Shown here: in pieces, positions 20,197-27,562 of the stretch | Numbering within the stretch: position 1 is the first letter of the stretch | Layout: every line of letters begins with the position of its first letter | The notes under the pieces: generated by a model | The model's input: only the letters and a program-made list of their open reading frames with translations | What the model was told of the DNA's origin: nothing | Database searches by the model: none | Source of the DNA: Breznakia sp. PF5-3 | GTDB taxonomy: Bacteria; Bacillota_I; Bacilli_A; Erysipelotrichales; Erysipelotrichaceae | Assembly (NCBI RefSeq): GCF_029504745.1 | Contig: NZ_JAQFIQ010000004.1 | Coordinates: 57,219 to 89,218, forward strand | Direction: 5' to 3' | Length of the DNA stretch: 32,000 nt | Made by a program: the position numbers and the translations under genes

Positions 20197-20206
20197 AAAT
20201 CAGCTT
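20186..20206. terminator. bidirectional hairpin shared by the convergent murB and PTS EIICB genes
   Basis: AAGCTGATT (20186-20194) / AATCAGCTT (20198-20206). The arms contain the last codons and stops of both genes. A T-rich run follows on the + strand. Confidence 0.55.
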
Positions 20207-21630
20207 TTATTTTGGGACTGCATTTCTTCAATAACGTCCATTATATAACTGGCATGCGGTCCATATACAACTTGGATTTCATTTCCTAATTTTAGATATT
20301 CCAGTGCCCCTGTTTTTTTTATTTCATCAAAAGAAAATTTATCAACGTCTAATAAACGAAAGCGAAGTCTTGTAATACAACAATCCATAAAAGTTATATT
20401 ATCTAAAGTACCACAATCACGAATTAAAATTGATGCGATTTGGAGCGCTTCTTCTTTTGTTAGATTGGTAGATAAAAATTGTGTATCTTCACTTACTTCA
20501 CGACCTAATGTATGCATATTAAATTTTTTAATAACATAAGTAAAGGTAAAGTAATATAAGAAGAAGATAAAAATACCTAACACTACCAACATAATAGGGG
20601 TTTTAGAAAATGGCATATTGAAACTTAAAATGAAGTCAATGAATCCTGCACTGAAACTAAATCCAGCAATCCATTGAAATTGTGCAGCAATGAATACACA
20701 AATTCCAGTTATTATTGCATGTAATAAATATAGTGGTGGAGCAATAAACATAAAAGCAAACTCGAGAGGCTCGGTTACACCTGTGAAAAAAGATGCAAAA
20801 GCAGCTGATAATAAGAATGATTTTATCTTTTCACGATTCTGTGGATAAGCTGTTTTCAACATGGCAAAGGCAACACCAGGAAGGCCAAACATCATGATGG
20901 GAAAAAATCCAGCTTGATACATTCCTGTAACACCCAAAGTTCCTGTAGAAGCCCAGAAGTTCCCAATGTCATTAATTCCAATGACATCAAACCAGAATAC
21001 AGAGTTTAGAGCATGATGCATTCCAATCGGAATTAATAAACGGTTAAAAAATGCATATATCCCAGCACCTAAAGGTCCTAACCCACTTACCAAAGCTCCA
21101 AATGAAATTAAACCTTCGTAAATGAAAGGCCATAAAAAGTATAAAATGATGGCAACAATAATTGTTATTAAAATAGTAATTAGTAGAATAACTAAATACT
21201 TGTTAACTTGTTGGAATGTTTTTTTATTGAAGCGATTGTATATCCCTGAAGCAATCACTCCTGATAGAATACCAATAAATTGATTATCAATTTTTTCAAA
21301 AGCGATGGGAATTGCCCCGCTAGTTTCACTTTGATAACTAGCAACACTATCACTTCCTAATAGGGAAGTAATAATTAAGAATGTTAATAACCCATTAAAC
21401 GCACTAAAACCACTTTGATCATCACTAAGGCCATAAGCCACACCTACAGCAAAGGTCATAGGCATAAAGCTCAATAGTGCATTTCCAGTAGTTTTTAAAA
21501 TGATTGCAAAGAAATAAATAGTAGAATTATCGATTTGTTCAAAGGAGTAACCTAATCCTGTGAGAATTGCAGCAATGGGAAAGATTGCAATGGGAAGTAA
21601 TAAGGATTTCCCAATTTTTTGTAAAGTCAT
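20200..21630 (-). CDS. PTS glucose/GlcNAc-family transporter subunit EIICB (intact)
   Basis: 476 aa. EIIC has the GITE-type motif (GVTEPLEFAFMF). The C-terminal EIIB has the phosphorylatable Cys motif (DCCITRLRF). No SD; the start follows the antiterminator stop as TAAtATG. Confidence 0.9.
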   Translation of the reverse strand: MTLQKIGKSLLLPIAIFPIAAILTGLGYSFEQIDNSTIYFFAIILKTTGNALLSFMPMTFAVGVAYGLSDDQSGFSAFNGLLTFLIITSLLGSDSVASYQSETSGAIPIAFEKIDNQFIGILSGVIASGIYNRFNKKTFQQVNKYLVILLITILITIIVAIILYFLWPFIYEGLISFGALVSGLGPLGAGIYAFFNRLLIPIGMHHALNSVFWFDVIGINDIGNFWASTGTLGVTGMYQAGFFPIMMFGLPGVAFAMLKTAYPQNREKIKSFLLSAAFASFFTGVTEPLEFAFMFIAPPLYLLHAIITGICVFIAAQFQWIAGFSFSAGFIDFILSFNMPFSKTPIMLVVLGIFIFFLYYFTFTYVIKKFNMHTLGREVSEDTQFLSTNLTKEEALQIASILIRDCGTLDNITFMDCCITRLRFRLLDVDKFSFDEIKKTGALEYLKLGNEIQVVYGPHASYIMDVIEEMQSQNKS

Positions 21631-21631
21631 A

Positions 21632-22456
21632 TTAGTTTATGATTTTATTGATATGAATCATCAGGTAAACTTTTTCATCCTGTGTGAGTTCATACTTATA
21701 GTTCATCTTAACAATTTCATAAATGTTTTCAATGCAACGCTCCATCAATGCATGATTACCCACAAGCAAGGTATATAGTTGATCCAAATCGATAGGTTCT
21801 TTTTTAGTATTTTGAAAAATATGCTGGGCTAGAAATTTCAGATGTGTTAACAACCGAGAATAATCAAGTTCATTTTCATCAAAAGATAAATGAAAGGTAT
21901 TTTCAATAATCGTTTGAATATCTTTAATAAATCGCAATATCTTGGTTGCATTTCCAGTGGTTGTCCCCATATTTGCATTCACAATATGCATAGCGATATA
22001 ACTTGCTTCATGCTCACCTAATTCAATTTTAGTATTTGCTTCAATTAATTTTAGTGACCACAAGCCCAGTTTAAATTCATCTTTATACAAAGTTCTAATT
22101 TCGGTAAGCATCAAATTTGGCATTTGCATATTTCGTTTTTTTCTTTCGACAGCATACCAAAGGTGATCGGTAAGTGAAATTAAAATTTGATTGCTTAAAG
22201 TAATATTTAATTCTTTGGTTGCTTTGCTAGCAATTGCTTCTGCAATTTGAAAGTATAGAACTGGTGTGCGATTCAATAATTGATTGATTTGAGTACGTTG
22301 TTTATCTTCAAATGTATACTTTTTATCAATCTTTTTTTCGTCAACAAAATCATTGGCTTTTTTTTGAAAACCAATTCCATTTCCGGTTAGGATAACTTCT
22401 TTATCACCATCTTTTGCGGCTATGATATTGTTATTATAAATACGGACAATTTTCAT
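21632..22456 (-). CDS. BglG/LicT/GlcT-family transcription antiterminator (CAT + PRD1 + PRD2)
   Basis: 274 aa. N-terminal CAT domain MKIVRIYNNNIIAA...GNGIGFQKK. Two PRD regions with conserved His contexts (LTDHL..., YIAMHI..., LLTHLKF...). Confidence 0.9.
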   Translation of the reverse strand: MKIVRIYNNNIIAAKDGDKEVILTGNGIGFQKKANDFVDEKKIDKKYTFEDKQRTQINQLLNRTPVLYFQIAEAIASKATKELNITLSNQILISLTDHLWYAVERKKRNMQMPNLMLTEIRTLYKDEFKLGLWSLKLIEANTKIELGEHEASYIAMHIVNANMGTTTGNATKILRFIKDIQTIIENTFHLSFDENELDYSRLLTHLKFLAQHIFQNTKKEPIDLDQLYTLLVGNHALMERCIENIYEIVKMNYKYELTQDEKVYLMIHINKIIN

Positions 22457-22467
22457 AAAGTTTCCTC

Positions 22468-23742
22468 CTAAAATACTAAAGATTGCATTTCTTCTTTTTG
22501 CAATTCTTCCAATGCTTTTGTTAGTTTATCACCATCTTTATCTATTTTTAAAATCAAAATATTCGCTTCTTTTTCATAAGGGATAGCAAAGCCCAAATCT
22601 TGAAATTTCTGCATATCTACAAAACTTATGGATATCACAAAAACTTCTATTCCCAAATTAGGAAGGTATTGAAAACGAATTATGTTTTCAATACCACCAA
22701 ATGCATGAAATAAGTTTTGAACAGTTTTATCATCATGTTTTTTTGTATTGATTACTCCTATATCAAAATGAATATTTAACTTTTGAAATAAGGTATAGAA
22801 AATCACCCCATATGCAATGCTTGCACCTATTCCGAGCAGTGGGATAGGAATACTACTATTATTATATACTATTATGAGCAAACCAGTTAAAAATATATGA
22901 ATACCATAAAGAATTGGACTACTCATAAAAATGATAATATCAAATAACATACCATTTCCACCTACTATACTATTTAAGAAAATCATTATAAATAAGGATA
23001 AATATAAATTTTTAAGTTGTTTGTTTGAATGAAGATAAACAATAATTAGTACTATTGGAGTTATATACATTGTAATGCTTGAAAGAAATGCTTGGCTTTC
23101 AATATCAAACATGGGAAGCAATGAAAATCCAATAGGGGTTAATAGTTTTTGAATACTGGCAATCCATCCATCACTAATGAAATGAAATTGTTTTATTCCA
23201 TTAATTAGGGTGATTAAACCTTCAACAATATATGGCCAAGTAAAAAAAAGAATACTTGATATGAAAATCATAATACAACCAGTTATAATAGGAACCAAAC
23301 GTTTTCCACTAAAGAATGCAAATCCTTGAGGAAGTTGAACACTTGAAAAATGATTATAAATCCAAGCACTTATAATTCCACACAAAATTCCAATAAATGG
23401 TGTTTGAATATAAACAAAGGTTGGATCTAATTGGTAGGTAGTACTTTCTAGTGCCTTTTGAAATGTATCGTTTGTTAGAATTTGAGTAACTACAATGTAG
23501 CTAATGATACCGCTTAAAATACTTGTTCCATCCATTTTTAAAGTTAGAAAAAAAGTAACACTTGCTGCAAGTAAGAGTGGCAAATGGTGAAAATATAAAG
23601 GTTCTAGATTTATTAGAAAATATAATCCAGAGAATTGAAAAGTCTCATAAAAAAAACTACCAATTAAACTTAATCCAGTAATTATCGGCAATATTAAAAG
23701 TGGCAACAGTAAACCGAGACAGTATCTTTTATAGGTATTCAC
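22468..23742 (-). CDS. degenerate PTS EIIC(B)-like membrane protein (predicted non-phosphorylatable, GITE motif lost)
   Basis: 424 aa, GTG start with an AGGGGG RBS. The EIIC-like N-terminus (LLLPLLILPIITGL) and polytopic body parallel the neighbouring EIICB. VGGNGMLFD replaces GVTEPLEF. The EIIB-like tail (FGGIENIIRFQYLPNLGIEV) has no cysteine. Confidence 0.7.
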   Translation of the reverse strand: MNTYKRYCLGLLLPLLILPIITGLSLIGSFFYETFQFSGLYFLINLEPLYFHHLPLLLAASVTFFLTLKMDGTSILSGIISYIVVTQILTNDTFQKALESTTYQLDPTFVYIQTPFIGILCGIISAWIYNHFSSVQLPQGFAFFSGKRLVPIITGCIMIFISSILFFTWPYIVEGLITLINGIKQFHFISDGWIASIQKLLTPIGFSLLPMFDIESQAFLSSITMYITPIVLIIVYLHSNKQLKNLYLSLFIMIFLNSIVGGNGMLFDIIIFMSSPILYGIHIFLTGLLIIVYNNSSIPIPLLGIGASIAYGVIFYTLFQKLNIHFDIGVINTKKHDDKTVQNLFHAFGGIENIIRFQYLPNLGIEVFVISISFVDMQKFQDLGFAIPYEKEANILILKIDKDGDKLTKALEELQKEEMQSLVF

Positions 23743-23782: not shown

Positions 23783-23811
23783 ATTATATGAAGTACAAAG
23801 GGGTTTGTCAA
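23783..23811 (-). promoter_or_regulatory. consensus sigma-A promoter of the EIIC'-antiterminator-EIICB operon
   Basis: The minus strand reads TTGACA (rc 23806-23811), 17 nt, TATAAT (rc 23783-23788). The leader to the GTG is only about 40 nt and has no hairpin. Confidence 0.75.
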
Positions 23812-23889: not shown

Positions 23890-24369
23890 ATGTTTCAACG
23901 ATTTTCTAAGCGGAAAAAACATTTGGATATTTTTGCTCCAGTAGACGGTCAGACAATGAGTCTTGATCAAGTAGATGACCCTGTATTTTCTGGAAGAATT
24001 ATGGGTGAAGGAATTGCGATTAACACGCATTGTGGTAAAGTATATGCGCCAGCAGATGGAACAATTGCAGTATTGGCCAAAACCAAACATGCAGTTGCCA
24101 TGAAATTGAATAATGGAATTGAATTGTTAATTCATGTTGGCATCCATACAGATACATTAACAGGCAATGAATGTTTATCCCACGTAGAAACTGGACAAAG
24201 AGTAAAAAAAGGAGAATTACTTCTAACGTTTGATTCAAAGAAGATGTGTAAAGAAACCGATATTGTTGTTCCAATTATTGTGTTGAATAGTTCACAACAT
24301 CCAATTTGTCACTTGAAAATAGGGACAAAAGCGGTTGTGAATGAAACGGTATTGTTTGAAGTGCAATAA
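23890..24369 (+). CDS. PTS glucose-family EIIA component
   Basis: 159 aa. EIIA-Glc fold motifs: DPVFSGRIMGEGIAI, and the active-site His region GIELLIHVGIHTDTL. Confidence 0.92.
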   Translation: MFQRFSKRKKHLDIFAPVDGQTMSLDQVDDPVFSGRIMGEGIAINTHCGKVYAPADGTIAVLAKTKHAVAMKLNNGIELLIHVGIHTDTLTGNECLSHVETGQRVKKGELLLTFDSKKMCKETDIVVPIIVLNSSQHPICHLKIGTKAVVNETVLFEVQ

Positions 24370-24376
24370 CTGGATA

Positions 24377-24404
24377 TTGACAACAACAAATATCGTGTTA
24401 AAAT
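24377..24404 (+). promoter_or_regulatory. promoter preceding the RAT element
   Basis: TTGACA (24377-24382), 16 nt, TGtTAAAAT (extended -10, 24396-24404). Confidence 0.6.
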
Positions 24405-24432
24405 GAAATTGACAGGTAGAATAGATAAGGTT

Positions 24433-24459
24433 GGATTGTAACTAGTAATAGGCAAGACT
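24433..24459 (+). promoter_or_regulatory. RAT (ribonucleic antiterminator) target of a BglG/LicT-family protein
   Basis: GGATTGTAACTAGTAATAGGCAAGACT compared with B. subtilis RATs (e.g. GGAUUGUGACUGGUAAAGCAGGCAAGACC). It folds as GG/UUG...CAA/CU with a CUA-GUAA-UAG apical stem and GNRA loop. Its 3' part overlaps the 5' arm of the terminator. Confidence 0.8.
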
Positions 24460-24505
24460 AACGAAATCACAGTGATGTGTTTTTGTTAATCTTGCCTTTT
24501 TGTTT
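24450..24505 (+). terminator. RAT-overlapping intrinsic terminator
   Basis: AGGCAAGACTAAC (24450-24462) pairs with GTTAATCTTGCCT (24485-24497): 13 bp with one C.A mismatch, followed by TTTTTGTTT. Confidence 0.8.
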
Positions 24506-24916
24506 CTTCCGCGATTGTCTATTGTAGTACTTGTTTCTCTTACACATCATCTGTGAGAAAACGATCCAAATGTTTTTGATACCGCAATATTAAAAACCAC
24601 ATAGGTGTGTGTGATATGATAATGATTTTTTATGCTCATATAAATGACAGGCATGAGCAATAAAAATTTAGTCATGGGGATGGAAACGCATTCATAAGTA
24701 AACACTAATAATCCAACAGGTTTCATTTCAAACTTCTTAGCAGGTTGATTATTGGGTTATGATAGGTTCCCCATATAAAATTTCGATGTTTTCAAAAACA
24801 ACTGAATTTTGGAAACTATCATAAATTGGTTTTATATTATGAATGGAGAAACAAGTACTAGGGTAGATAATCTGGTTCCCAAGAAGGAAAGGGATTTTAA
24901 CACACCAAATATGTAA

Positions 24917-24950
24917 TAACAGTGGATTTACACATAGGAATCCACTGTTA
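24917..24950. repeat. perfect 12-bp inverted repeat TAACAGTGGATT-N10-AATCCACTGTTA
   Basis: Seen directly in the sequence. No adjacent U-run on either strand. About 50 bp upstream of the TGaTATAAT box (about 25003-25011) of the next gene. Confidence 0.7.
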
Positions 24951-25035
24951 TACATATATTGTGAAAAAGGGATTTGGATAATTTTTTTTCTTTATTAAAT
25001 CTATGATATAATAGCTAGGCAATAAAGGGGAAAAG

Positions 25036-25866
25036 ATGAAAAAGCAATTAGAAAATAGTATTATCAAAACCTATCGAAAAGATATTTGGTCAAAATTTAT
25101 GAAGGCTTTACGAGAGTATGCATTAATTCAAAGCGATGATGTCATAGCCGTTTGTATCTCAGGAGGAAAAGATAGCATGTTGATGGCAAAATGTTTTGCT
25201 ATTCTCTCACGCTTTACAGAGGTTCCATTCACAGTAAAATATATTGTAATGGATCCAGGGTATAAGCAAGAAAATCTAGAGAAGATTAAAAGCAATGCCA
25301 AAAAGTTAGAAATTCCGATTGAAATATTTTCAACTCAAATTTTTGAAACAGTAGAAAAAATTGATAAAAACCCATGCTATTTATGTGCACGGATGCGTAG
25401 AGGGTATCTCTATAATTATGCACAAAAGCTCGGTTGTAATAAAATTGCACTTGGTCATCATTATGATGATGTAATCGAAACAAACTTGATGAATATTTTC
25501 TATGCTGGTGAAATTCGTACCATGATGCCAAAGCTTCATTCACAAAATTTTAAAGGTATGGAATTGATTCGTCCTTTATATTTAGTGAAGGAAGATGCTA
25601 TTATTCGTTGGAAAGAGTGGAATGATTTAGATTTCTTAGAATGTGCATGTCGGTTTACGGAAGAAAATGATAGTAATTTAAAAGAACAGACGAGTAAACG
25701 AAAAGAAATAAAAGACTTAATCAAAAAATATAAGGAAATAAACCCTTATTTAGATAGTAATATTTTTCATTCTATGGCGAATGTAAATATTAGTAAAGTT
25801 CTTTCTTATTATGATGAGGAAAAAGAAGTAAACTTTCTAGATACATATGATTCTAAAGAAAGTTAA
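25036..25866 (+). CDS. PP-loop ATPase, TtcA-like tRNA thiolation enzyme
   Basis: 276 aa. PP-loop SGGKDS, a CxxC context (PCYLCARMRRG), GHHYDD, and later Cys residues (ECACRF). Confidence 0.75.
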   Translation: MKKQLENSIIKTYRKDIWSKFMKALREYALIQSDDVIAVCISGGKDSMLMAKCFAILSRFTEVPFTVKYIVMDPGYKQENLEKIKSNAKKLEIPIEIFSTQIFETVEKIDKNPCYLCARMRRGYLYNYAQKLGCNKIALGHHYDDVIETNLMNIFYAGEIRTMMPKLHSQNFKGMELIRPLYLVKEDAIIRWKEWNDLDFLECACRFTEENDSNLKEQTSKRKEIKDLIKKYKEINPYLDSNIFHSMANVNISKVLSYYDEEKEVNFLDTYDSKES

Positions 25867-25925: not shown

Positions 25926-26645
25926 ATGAACGTTATAGTATGTAAAGATAAAAAAGAAGTAGCTGAAAAAGCGTATGAAGTGATGAAAGAAGTGGTTGTA
26001 AATAAACCAACTGCGGTATTGGGATTGGCAACAGGCTCTAGTCCAATTGGATTATATGGGGAAATGATTGCTGATTATAAAGCAGGGAATGTTAGCTATA
26101 AGGATGTTACAACATTTAATTTGGATGAATATGTAGGAATTGCAAAAGATCATCCAGAAAGTTATTCAACATTCATGCACAAAGAATTGTTTGACCATAT
26201 TGATGTGAAAGAAGCGAATGTACATTTGCCTTATGGAAACACACAAGCAGATTGTGATGCTTATGAAAAGGCGATGAGTGATGTTCGTGTAGATATTCAA
26301 GTATTGGGAATTGGAAGAAATGGGCATATTGGGTTCAATGAACCAGGAACTTCTTTTGATTCACTTACACACATTGTGAGTTTAGATCAAAAAACAATTG
26401 AAGATAATGCTAGATTCTTCGATAATGATGTAACCAAAGTCCCAAAGCAAGCAATTTCAATGGGAATTGCGACAATTATGAAAGCAAAGAAAATCTTGTT
26501 AATTGCAACAGGAGAAAATAAAGCTGATGCGGTTGAAGCTATGGTAAATGGGCCAATCGATGAATCCATGCCTGCATCAATCTTACAAAACCATGATAAC
26601 GTTGTAGTTTTTGTAGATGAAGCAGCAGCAAGTAAGTTGAAATAA
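25926..26645 (+). CDS. nagB: glucosamine-6-phosphate deaminase
   Basis: 239 aa. GLATGSSP, FNLDEYVG, GIGRNGHIGFNEPG. Confidence 0.95.
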   Translation: MNVIVCKDKKEVAEKAYEVMKEVVVNKPTAVLGLATGSSPIGLYGEMIADYKAGNVSYKDVTTFNLDEYVGIAKDHPESYSTFMHKELFDHIDVKEANVHLPYGNTQADCDAYEKAMSDVRVDIQVLGIGRNGHIGFNEPGTSFDSLTHIVSLDQKTIEDNARFFDNDVTKVPKQAISMGIATIMKAKKILLIATGENKADAVEAMVNGPIDESMPASILQNHDNVVVFVDEAAASKLK

Positions 26646-26731: not shown

Positions 26732-27562
26732 ATGATCAAAGCAATATGTATGGATTTGGATGGAACTTTATTGACAAGTGAAAAAACAATTAGTTCAAAA
26801 ACGCAACAGGGATTGAAATCCTATGCGAAGCAAGGAGTGCAATTAATTCTAGCTAGTGGACGTACGAGAAAGCGTATGCAAGATTATGCCGATATAATTG
26901 ACCTTGAAGTTAGTGATGGAAAAATAATTGAATCAAATGGAGTTGCTATATATGATTATGAAAAGGATTCTTATGAAGTAATCAGAAGGATGAAATTTGG
27001 TGAGGTAAAAGAAATTGTTGATTTTTTAAAAACCCAAAAGGTTGAAATCTTGATTATGGGTGAAGAAAATGTGTTTATTATATTAGCTCCAGGCGAAAAA
27101 GAGAGTAGCTATATCCGCAGCAGTAGCAATATGGAAGGATTAAAAAATAGAAAATTCTTTTATATTAAGGATATAGATGAAATTAATGAAGCAGTTAATA
27201 AAGTTTGTGTTTTTGAAAATGAAAAGCTTGTTAATGAACTATATGAAAAGTTATCAAAAGATACATTTAAACATGCATATTGGTGTGGTAGAACATTACC
27301 TGTGTGGTTAGAAATTGGTCCAGCATCAGTTAGTAAAGGAAATGCTTTAGTTAAGATCATGGAACGTTATCAATGGAAGGATGATGAAGTCATCGTATTT
27401 GGTGATGGAGAAAATGATTTATCGATGTTAGGAACTGTAAAAAACAGTGTTGCTATGGGAAATGCAATGGAAAGTGTAAAAGCTGCATGTGCATTTGAAT
27501 GTGGCACAAATGATGAAGATGGAATTATAAATTTCTTAAAGGAGAAGGAGGAAATATTATGA
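26732..27562 (+). CDS. Cof-type HAD-IIB family hydrolase (sugar-phosphate phosphatase-like)
   Basis: 276 aa. Motif I MDLDGTLL, motif IV GDGENDLSM, and a cap domain in between. Confidence 0.88.
   Translation: MIKAICMDLDGTLLTSEKTISSKTQQGLKSYAKQGVQLILASGRTRKRMQDYADIIDLEVSDGKIIESNGVAIYDYEKDSYEVIRRMKFGEVKEIVDFLKTQKVEILIMGEENVFIILAPGEKESSYIRSSSNMEGLKNRKFFYIKDIDEINEAVNKVCVFENEKLVNELYEKLSKDTFKHAYWCGRTLPVWLEIGPASVSKGNALVKIMERYQWKDDEVIVFGDGENDLSMLGTVKNSVAMGNAMESVKAACAFECGTNDEDGIINFLKEKEEIL

Follow-up and report, generated by a model that had tools for sequence, protein, structure and literature searches.

A degenerate EIICB paralog in front of an antiterminator gene in Breznakia: putative partner of an intact permease in an asymmetric heterodimer

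Why is a permease paralog that has lost the residues for binding and phosphorylating sugar kept, as the first gene of an antiterminator operon, over a deep divergence? This question is raised by a stretch of 32,000 nucleotides from Breznakia sp. PF5-3 (NCBI RefSeq assembly GCF_029504745.1, contig NZ_JAQFIQ010000004.1, positions 57,219 to 89,218), which is called the window here and whose own numbering is used below. On its minus strand lie, in this order, a 424-aa degenerate NagE-type EIICB paralog, which we name psi, a LicT/BglG-type antiterminator and an intact NagE-type EIICB of the same operon, named B. By current descriptions, glucose-family EIIC permeases of the phosphotransferase system (PTS) form symmetric homodimers, the protomers gating each other's sugar sites. 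We put at about one half the probability that psi and B pair as an asymmetric EIIC heterodimer in which psi is the non-catalytic protomer, a reading built on comparison of sequences. The trio is a module of a PTS glucose-family permease and a PRD antiterminator with an apparently obligate dead partner. The complementary losses described below point first to a partnership of psi with B and not with the antiterminator.

The degenerate paralog psi

The gene and its parts, as delimited in this analysis, are the following.

22468 to 23742, minus strand: psi open reading frame (ORF), GTG start at 23742 and TAG stop; from ORF calling, Pfam and NCBIfam profiles, BLASTP, alignments and an AlphaFold2 (AF2) model
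23188 to 23742, minus strand: scaffold (dimerisation) domain, residues 1-185, transmembrane helices TM1-TM5 and an amphipathic helix; limits taken from PtsG (PMC11930441)
23287 to 23334, minus strand: cytoplasmic loop LPQGFAFFSGKRLVPI, residues 137-152, where conservation across the psi family is highest
22768 to 23187, minus strand: degenerate transport domain, residues 186-325; HP1b/His-His hairpin and TM7-alpha3 thin-gate loop deleted, GITE replaced by GGNG
22534 to 22731, minus strand: residues 338-403, a domain of EIIB(Glc) fold that lacks Cys and Arg; FGGIENI kept, C.TRLR replaced by LPNLGI
22471 to 22533, minus strand: psi-specific C-terminal acidic helix, residues 404-424, with a conserved hydrophobic L-x-[LIF] end

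An earlier note on this DNA had described an intact 424-aa frame with a good ribosome binding site (RBS), and this holds, with an AGGGGG Shine-Dalgarno sequence 8 nt 5' of the GTG, while the location had to be corrected to the minus strand. Its view of psi as a relative of the intact EIICB with an EIIB-like tail is also borne out. psi and B share 26% identity over psi residues 3-292 (BLASTP), and Pfam PTS_EIIC PF02378 matches psi with 56.3 bits (cut-off 30.7), in residues 12-227 only. The NagE equivalog model TIGR01998 reaches 111.8 bits against a cut-off of 553.2, in residues 10-206 only, which leaves psi outside of that equivalog. EIIC profile matches are confined to the scaffold part and none falls elsewhere in psi, and the Pfam scan with PF00367 (EIIB(Glc)) gave no match in psi in spite of the EIIB(Glc) fold in the model. 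According to this AF2 model, built with 19 family members (mean pLDDT 88.3, pTM 0.73), psi folds like an EIIC and also carries a genuine EIIB(Glc) fold. Foldseek matched it to PtsG (9a3b, E 2e-15), and also to 8qsr and MalT 5iws, and its C-terminal domain was superposed on the EIIB(Glc) structures 3bp3_A, 1o2f_B and 3bp8_C with a target TM-score of 0.85-0.87 and a root mean square deviation of 1.4-1.5 Å over 75-79 residues. The order of parts is that of the E. coli PtsG (IICB-Glc) and NagE permeases, i.e. scaffold TM1-5, cytoplasmic loop, transport domain, linker and EIIB(Glc), with a near-canonical loop. The pairs E50/K91 and N74/D75 of the PtsG dimer (salt bridge, H-bond) are not kept in psi (N45/Q87), from which we draw no inference.

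In PtsG, H211, H212, T297 and E298 bind glucose and F337 forms the thin gate (PMC11930441, PMC11393339), and the protein further possesses the HP1b hairpin and the Cys421/Arg phosphorylation site; psi has none of these. In multiple alignments with B and canonical NagE proteins the GMHHALNSVFWFD...GVTGMY hairpin, which carries the His-His pair equivalent to PtsG H211/H212, falls in a 24-residue deletion, and the AGFSFSAGFIDF... loop with the position of F337 is deleted as well. The position of the sugar-binding motif GVTEPLEF is taken by VGGNGMLFD, which lacks the GITE Thr-Glu, and no conserved Glu was found near it in the alignments. The tail retains GG-x-x-NI as FGGIENI, but the position of CITRLR (C-x-TRLR) reads LPNLGI; Cys residues are found only at 8, 121 and 156, which leaves the C-terminal domain Cys-free. 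Both losses had been claimed in the earlier note, and neither the GITE glutamate nor the EIIB cysteine was found in a shifted position. The same two deletions and motif losses are present in all 19-20 psi family members aligned, and a phosphorylatable EIIB Cys is absent from every one of them. These alignments support the view that neither binding nor phosphorylation of sugar by the known mechanism would be possible for psi. As to the sensor role which had been suggested for psi, the alignment and a conservation scan found no invariant polar residue in the degenerate transport domain across the family, hence no conserved ligand site, for which reason we reject a plain ligand-sensor role as unlikely.

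The first search for relatives returned five proteins of 418-423 aa with 35-45% identity, among them one annotated in Erysipelotrichaceae bacterium MTC7 as "hypothetical protein". About a dozen more full-length members, with identities as low as 21%, came from a profile search of 1.8 billion representatives; this brings the family to about 20 diverged members with open reading frames, in which the C-terminal helix with its L-x-[LIF] end is conserved. Of the distant members, a word-based search with the profile of the family found only 2. A pattern search from the close psi alignment, where the loop was the only usable pattern, returned mostly canonical NagE proteins and one true psi, the second copy of MTC7. 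Full-length psi occurs in 6 out of 201 sampled genomes of the same bacterial family, in three genera and including all three other genomes of the window's genus, with two copies in one of the 201; among 399 genomes sampled across the phylum it is confined to that one family. In one metagenome contig (L029, 1939-3160) psi is split by a frameshift into ORFs of 320 and 93 aa, next to an intact antiterminator and an intact B.

dN/dS could be taken from two unsaturated close pairs only (dS about 0.19), more distant pairs being saturated. It was 0.05 (L005 vs L022) and 0.17 (L020 vs L021) for psi, 0.012 and 0.020 for the antiterminator in the same two pairs, and 0.08 for B (L020 vs L021). Across the trios, psi is 22-45% identical to the window copy, the antiterminator 53-85% and B 46-73%, which makes psi the fastest evolving of the three. 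The dN/dS values, together with about 20 diverged members with open frames, indicate that psi is not decaying, and they support its retention under purifying selection. A decaying, functionless pseudogene from a duplicated nagE would agree with the lost catalytic motifs, the faster evolution of psi than of its neighbors and the one frameshifted metagenome copy. It is contradicted by the frame kept open in about 20 members diverged to 21% identity, by the dN/dS of 0.05-0.17, by invariant loop and EIIB core residues and by a model with a pLDDT of 88. We regard it as ruled out by the selection data and leave it hardly any credit. The earlier claim of a retained, non-transporting protein is in accordance with these results.

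Opposite fates of the cytoplasmic loop in psi and B

The earlier note had placed the intact EIICB three genes away, while it is in fact the second gene downstream of psi, directly past the antiterminator.

20200 to 21630, minus strand: B, intact NagE-type EIICB, 476 aa, with GMHHALN, GVTEPLEF, the F326 thin gate and CITRLR all present
21193 to 21228, minus strand: degenerate TM4-TM5 connection of B, NKKTFQQVNKYL, residues 135-146, with the FFxGKR helix deleted; the least conserved stretch of the B EIIC domain

It is known that the PtsG loop reaches the transport domain of the adjacent protomer, where F146 and R151 close the inward-facing sugar site and F146' is a key gate of the inward-facing occluded site (PMC11393339). 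R151 bonds S21', F146'(N) bonds S286, and in the inward-facing state F337 stacks on F146 (PMC11393339). The HMMER alignment places psi F143 at PtsG F146 and psi R148 at PtsG R151, and in the psi family F143 is invariant and R148 nearly so (90% or more). All of the 11 distinct trios aligned show the same division: psi keeps LPxx[LF][AG]FFSG[KR]RxVPI, which canonical NagE proteins also keep between TM4 and TM5, while B has a 4-residue deletion and a variable sequence without FFxGKR. B F326 (PtsG F337), on the other hand, is invariant across B and canonical proteins, and the Ser equivalent to PtsG S286 is retained in the six B proteins aligned. The AF2 models agree with the loss of the loop in B: a discrete helix is modelled in the loop of psi (139-144), and in the B model TM4 (117-135) runs straight into TM5 via 5 residues.

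Conservation was scored as mean per-column pairwise identity in a joint alignment of 20 psi, 21 B and 31 canonical NagE proteins. The cytoplasmic loop scores 0.60 in psi, 0.15 in B and 0.69 in canonical NagE, and the HP1 sugar-binding hairpin scores 0.21, 0.80 and 0.81, respectively. In a sliding window of 15 columns psi reaches its global maximum at the loop (0.65 vs a mean of 0.25), and the same 15 columns are the global minimum of the B EIIC domain (0.14 vs 0.55). A reciprocal loss, with the trans-acting loop left in one protomer and the sugar site in the other, is therefore what is found in psi and B. The loop motif is missing from 21 of the 120 closest B homologues, and these 21 form a single clade (SH-aLRT 100). 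All loop-less EIICBs with enough sequence context, six not having been checked for it, stand in a psi-antiterminator-B trio. psi forms one clade as well, and the inner branching of both trees matches, which indicates co-inheritance.

In an asymmetric heterodimer psi would supply its scaffold (dimerisation) domain and the TM4-TM5 cytoplasmic loop, the latter acting in trans, and B the sole working transport domain and the sole phosphorylatable EIIB. The loop of B itself would face the dead transport domain of psi and so be free to decay, and psi could lose the sugar site which B provides, so that complementary degeneration after duplication would lock both genes in. Each copy would need the other because B has lost the loop helix and psi the sugar site, and, as the genome encodes no NagE-type EIICB besides B, no other paralog could lend it a loop.

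The operon and its putative RNA target

21632 to 22456, minus strand: LicT/BglG-family antiterminator, 274 aa, CAT and two PRDs; from profiles and alignment
23783 to 23811, minus strand: trio promoter of sigma-A type, TTGACA-17 nt-TATAAT, read directly from the sequence
23890 to 24369, plus strand: divergent EIIA(Glc) gene, in the same position in closer relatives
24424 to 24500, plus strand: conserved ribonucleic antiterminator (RAT) site that overlaps an intrinsic terminator and is preceded by a separate promoter (24378-24405), downstream of the EIIA gene

The antiterminator is matched by PF03123 with 63.5 bits and by PF00874 with 101.6 bits in two stretches, and by the LicT model NF046042 with 264 bits, under its equivalog cut-off of 300. 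His98, His157, His205 and His268 all lie in conserved PRD motifs, and the protein thus belongs by its CAT domain, two PRDs and four His to this family. Its AGGAGG RBS overlaps the psi stop codon, and the two genes are translationally coupled in all relatives examined; psi is indeed, as had been claimed, the coupled first gene of the operon. The ATG of B follows 1 nt past the antiterminator stop and no Shine-Dalgarno sequence is visible there (21625-21640, minus strand); translation of B is probably dependent on coupling to the antiterminator gene. Junctions in all trios are 13 nt or shorter, or overlap, which fits co-produced proteins. The order psi-antiterminator-B, and with it the dead copy whose conservation in relatives was in question, is kept in 14 out of 14 loci examined, even at a psi identity of 22-25% with unrelated flanks.

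The trio promoter looks constitutive, with a short leader in which no RAT or terminator was found on that strand. The RAT at 24433, which the earlier note had named, is not in the leader of this operon but lies on the opposite (plus) strand and downstream of the divergent EIIA gene. The RAT-terminator accompanies the trio in Erysipelotrichaceae loci and is transcribed away from it; it is likely the RNA target of the antiterminator, and the EIIA(Glc) product is presumably the IIA partner of B. The psi:B pair would be made with the antiterminator from one message and would probably act both as an uptake system for sugars of N-acetylglucosamine (GlcNAc) type and as a sensor, in which phosphorylated EIIB of B would set the phosphorylation state of the antiterminator in the usual way and, through it, read-through at RAT 24433. 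The motif losses, the folds, the selection, the synteny and the complementary pattern of conservation are observed, and the gating in trans, the regulation and the heterodimer itself are what we infer. A more tentative extension, to which we give less than even odds, is that an obligate asymmetric heterodimer arisen by complementary paralog decay forms with the coupled antiterminator a constitutive three-protein sensing and uptake module, whose read-out would be a RAT-gated non-coding RNA.

Several minor observations concern the region past the RAT. On the plus strand, in 24377-25035, the promoter, RAT and terminator are followed by about 500 nt without an ORF of at least 60 aa, until a TtcA-like gene at 25036. 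An inverted repeat at 24524 (GTAGTACTTGTTTCTC) and 24846 (GAGAAACAAGTACTAG) recurs in the locus L006 with both arms changed; an Rfam scan of the window at gathering thresholds gave no match. Further 3' lie genes for a TtcA-like PF01171 ATPase (25036-25866), a NagB glucosamine-6-phosphate deaminase (25926-26645) and a HAD hydrolase (26732-27562), an order also present in L003 and L005; this ties the locus to the use of amino sugars. The genome is very PTS-rich, with 5 to 6 BglG-family antiterminator matches and about 23 EIIC genes, and has two further RAT-like sites, at C4:20835 (plus strand) and C30:24332 (minus strand). The closest homologue of B is found in Breznakia pachnodae. In MTC7 (G128) two complete trios are present (L024 and L027), each with a RAT nearby, and L027 has an additional RAT directly 3' of B.

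Alternatives, known systems and origin

Several points weigh against a psi:B heterodimer. B may function as a homodimer without the gate, and the psi loop may be conserved only for the dimer interface of psi itself. The interface helices TM1-3 of psi are weakly conserved (0.29), which a heterodimer does not explain, and neither does it explain the EIIB-fold domain and conserved C-terminal tail of psi or the position of the antiterminator gene between psi and B. The frameshift of psi in the L029 contig reflects either a fault of the assembly or a true loss, and six loop-less EIICBs stand outside of the context check. The loss of the loop in B is, moreover, a single event at the base of one clade, because of which the perfect co-occurrence of loop-less B and psi stands for one evolutionary event and not for many. 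What carries the weight is that one and the same segment has long been under opposite constraint in the psi and B lineages.

The unexplained EIIB fold, tail and gene position leave room for the other role that the earlier note had considered, a membrane tether or modulator. The Cys-less EIIB fold and C-terminal tail of psi would bind a PRD of the antiterminator and, without phosphoryl transfer, either keep it at the membrane or offer it to the EIIB of B. It is known that unphosphorylated EIIB domains sequester Mlc and activate MtlR, which counts for such a role, as do the overlap of the psi stop with the antiterminator RBS, the order invariant in 14 loci, and the well-folded EIIB(Glc) domain (TM-score 0.85-0.87) and family-specific L-x-[LIF] helix, which a heterodimer does not need. 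In E. coli the BglF permease recruits BglG and holds it at the membrane (PMC12591593), and in B. subtilis sacX-sacY a PTS EII paralog likewise comes first with a BglG/SacY-type antiterminator directly next (PMC12591593), the gene order of psi. However, all known control of antiterminators by EII proteins goes via the EIIB cysteine, and the precedents need it: BglF is a working EIIBCA acting through its cysteine, and SacX is an EIIBC(Suc) with a phospho-cysteine which controls SacY by phosphorylation, while psi has neither cysteine nor sugar site and thus lacks the means for a transfer of SacX type to PRD1. Binding of the antiterminator by psi in the manner of BglF is conjecture and a less direct case than these precedents, and it could be the intact B that phosphorylates PRD1 instead. 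The EIIB-like domain of psi is also no better conserved (0.21) than the background (0.25), and a tether accounts neither for the loop as the most conserved element of psi nor for its loss in B. We consider this role unlikely on the whole, and it could coexist with the heterodimer.

Still less probable, in our opinion, is that psi joins B as a brake, a dead protomer which halves or throttles transport and makes B a low-flux sensor permease, or that psi forms homodimers with an unrelated membrane role. The retained scaffold domain would suit either of these, and the Clostridium sp. locus described below, where an antiterminator-coupled intact EIICB stands beside a separate RAT-controlled NagE, suggests that the coupled copy is primarily a sensor. 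Against a brake, the gate residues F143 and R148 need not persist over such deep divergence, and throttling the sole NagE-type permease of the genome seems costly; homodimers of psi would leave its co-inheritance with a loop-less B unexplained.

The heterodimer of psi and B, to return to the preferred reading, would differ from the known Glc-family EIIC dimers, which are homodimers, in that two genes appear to split the roles. In our literature searches neither a dead EIICB paralog nor a heterodimer of Glc-family EIIC proteins turned up. Complementary loss has fixed heteromers elsewhere, as in ABC exporters with one degenerate ATP site and in the fungal V-ATPase ring of Vma3, Vma11 and Vma16. 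As proposed for psi and B, duplicates of a former homo-oligomer each lose there what the other keeps, so that both become obligatory, but these are different protein families and the psi:B complex itself is only proposed. Among antiterminator systems, the E. faecalis nagY-nagE locus also has a BglG/SacY-type antiterminator followed by a NagE-type permease, with RAT targets elsewhere too (PMC9981650, PMC12502629), and its NagE is an EIICBA (PMC12591593). Unlike the trio, it lacks a dead paralog and carries a RAT within its 5' UTR. The sacXY leader contains a RAT as well and that of the trio none, and in the trio a second, intact EIICB follows the antiterminator.

If the heterodimer is real, the trio would offer a natural system with a single site in which trans-gating and the elevator cycle could be studied, and a clean bacterial case in which reciprocal loss has turned a homomer into an obligate heteromer. 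It would further be relevant to the wiring of PRD antiterminators and permeases where the operon is not self-regulated, and serve as a warning for annotation, where psi is labelled "PTS EIIC" or "hypothetical" and B an ordinary NagE. For PTS structural biology this would be a real surprise, one that rests on sequence inference.

As to the origin of the trio, psi sits on a long stem in both full-length and scaffold-only NagE trees, which do not resolve its placement within NagE, and its ancestor may be either a duplicate of B or an upstream gene of NagE1 type. The tree gives as the sister group of the B clade an EIICB of Clostridium sp. which still has the loop. Its locus (L032, 2400-6476, GCA_001513565.1) contains a RAT-terminator, an intact NagE-1, a terminator, and an antiterminator overlapping an intact NagE-2 with the loop, and it looks like an undegenerated form of the trio. 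An arrangement of two EIICBs around an antiterminator therefore exists with both copies intact and, since the antiterminator and EIICB are coupled there with the loop still in place, this coupling is older than the loss of the loop.

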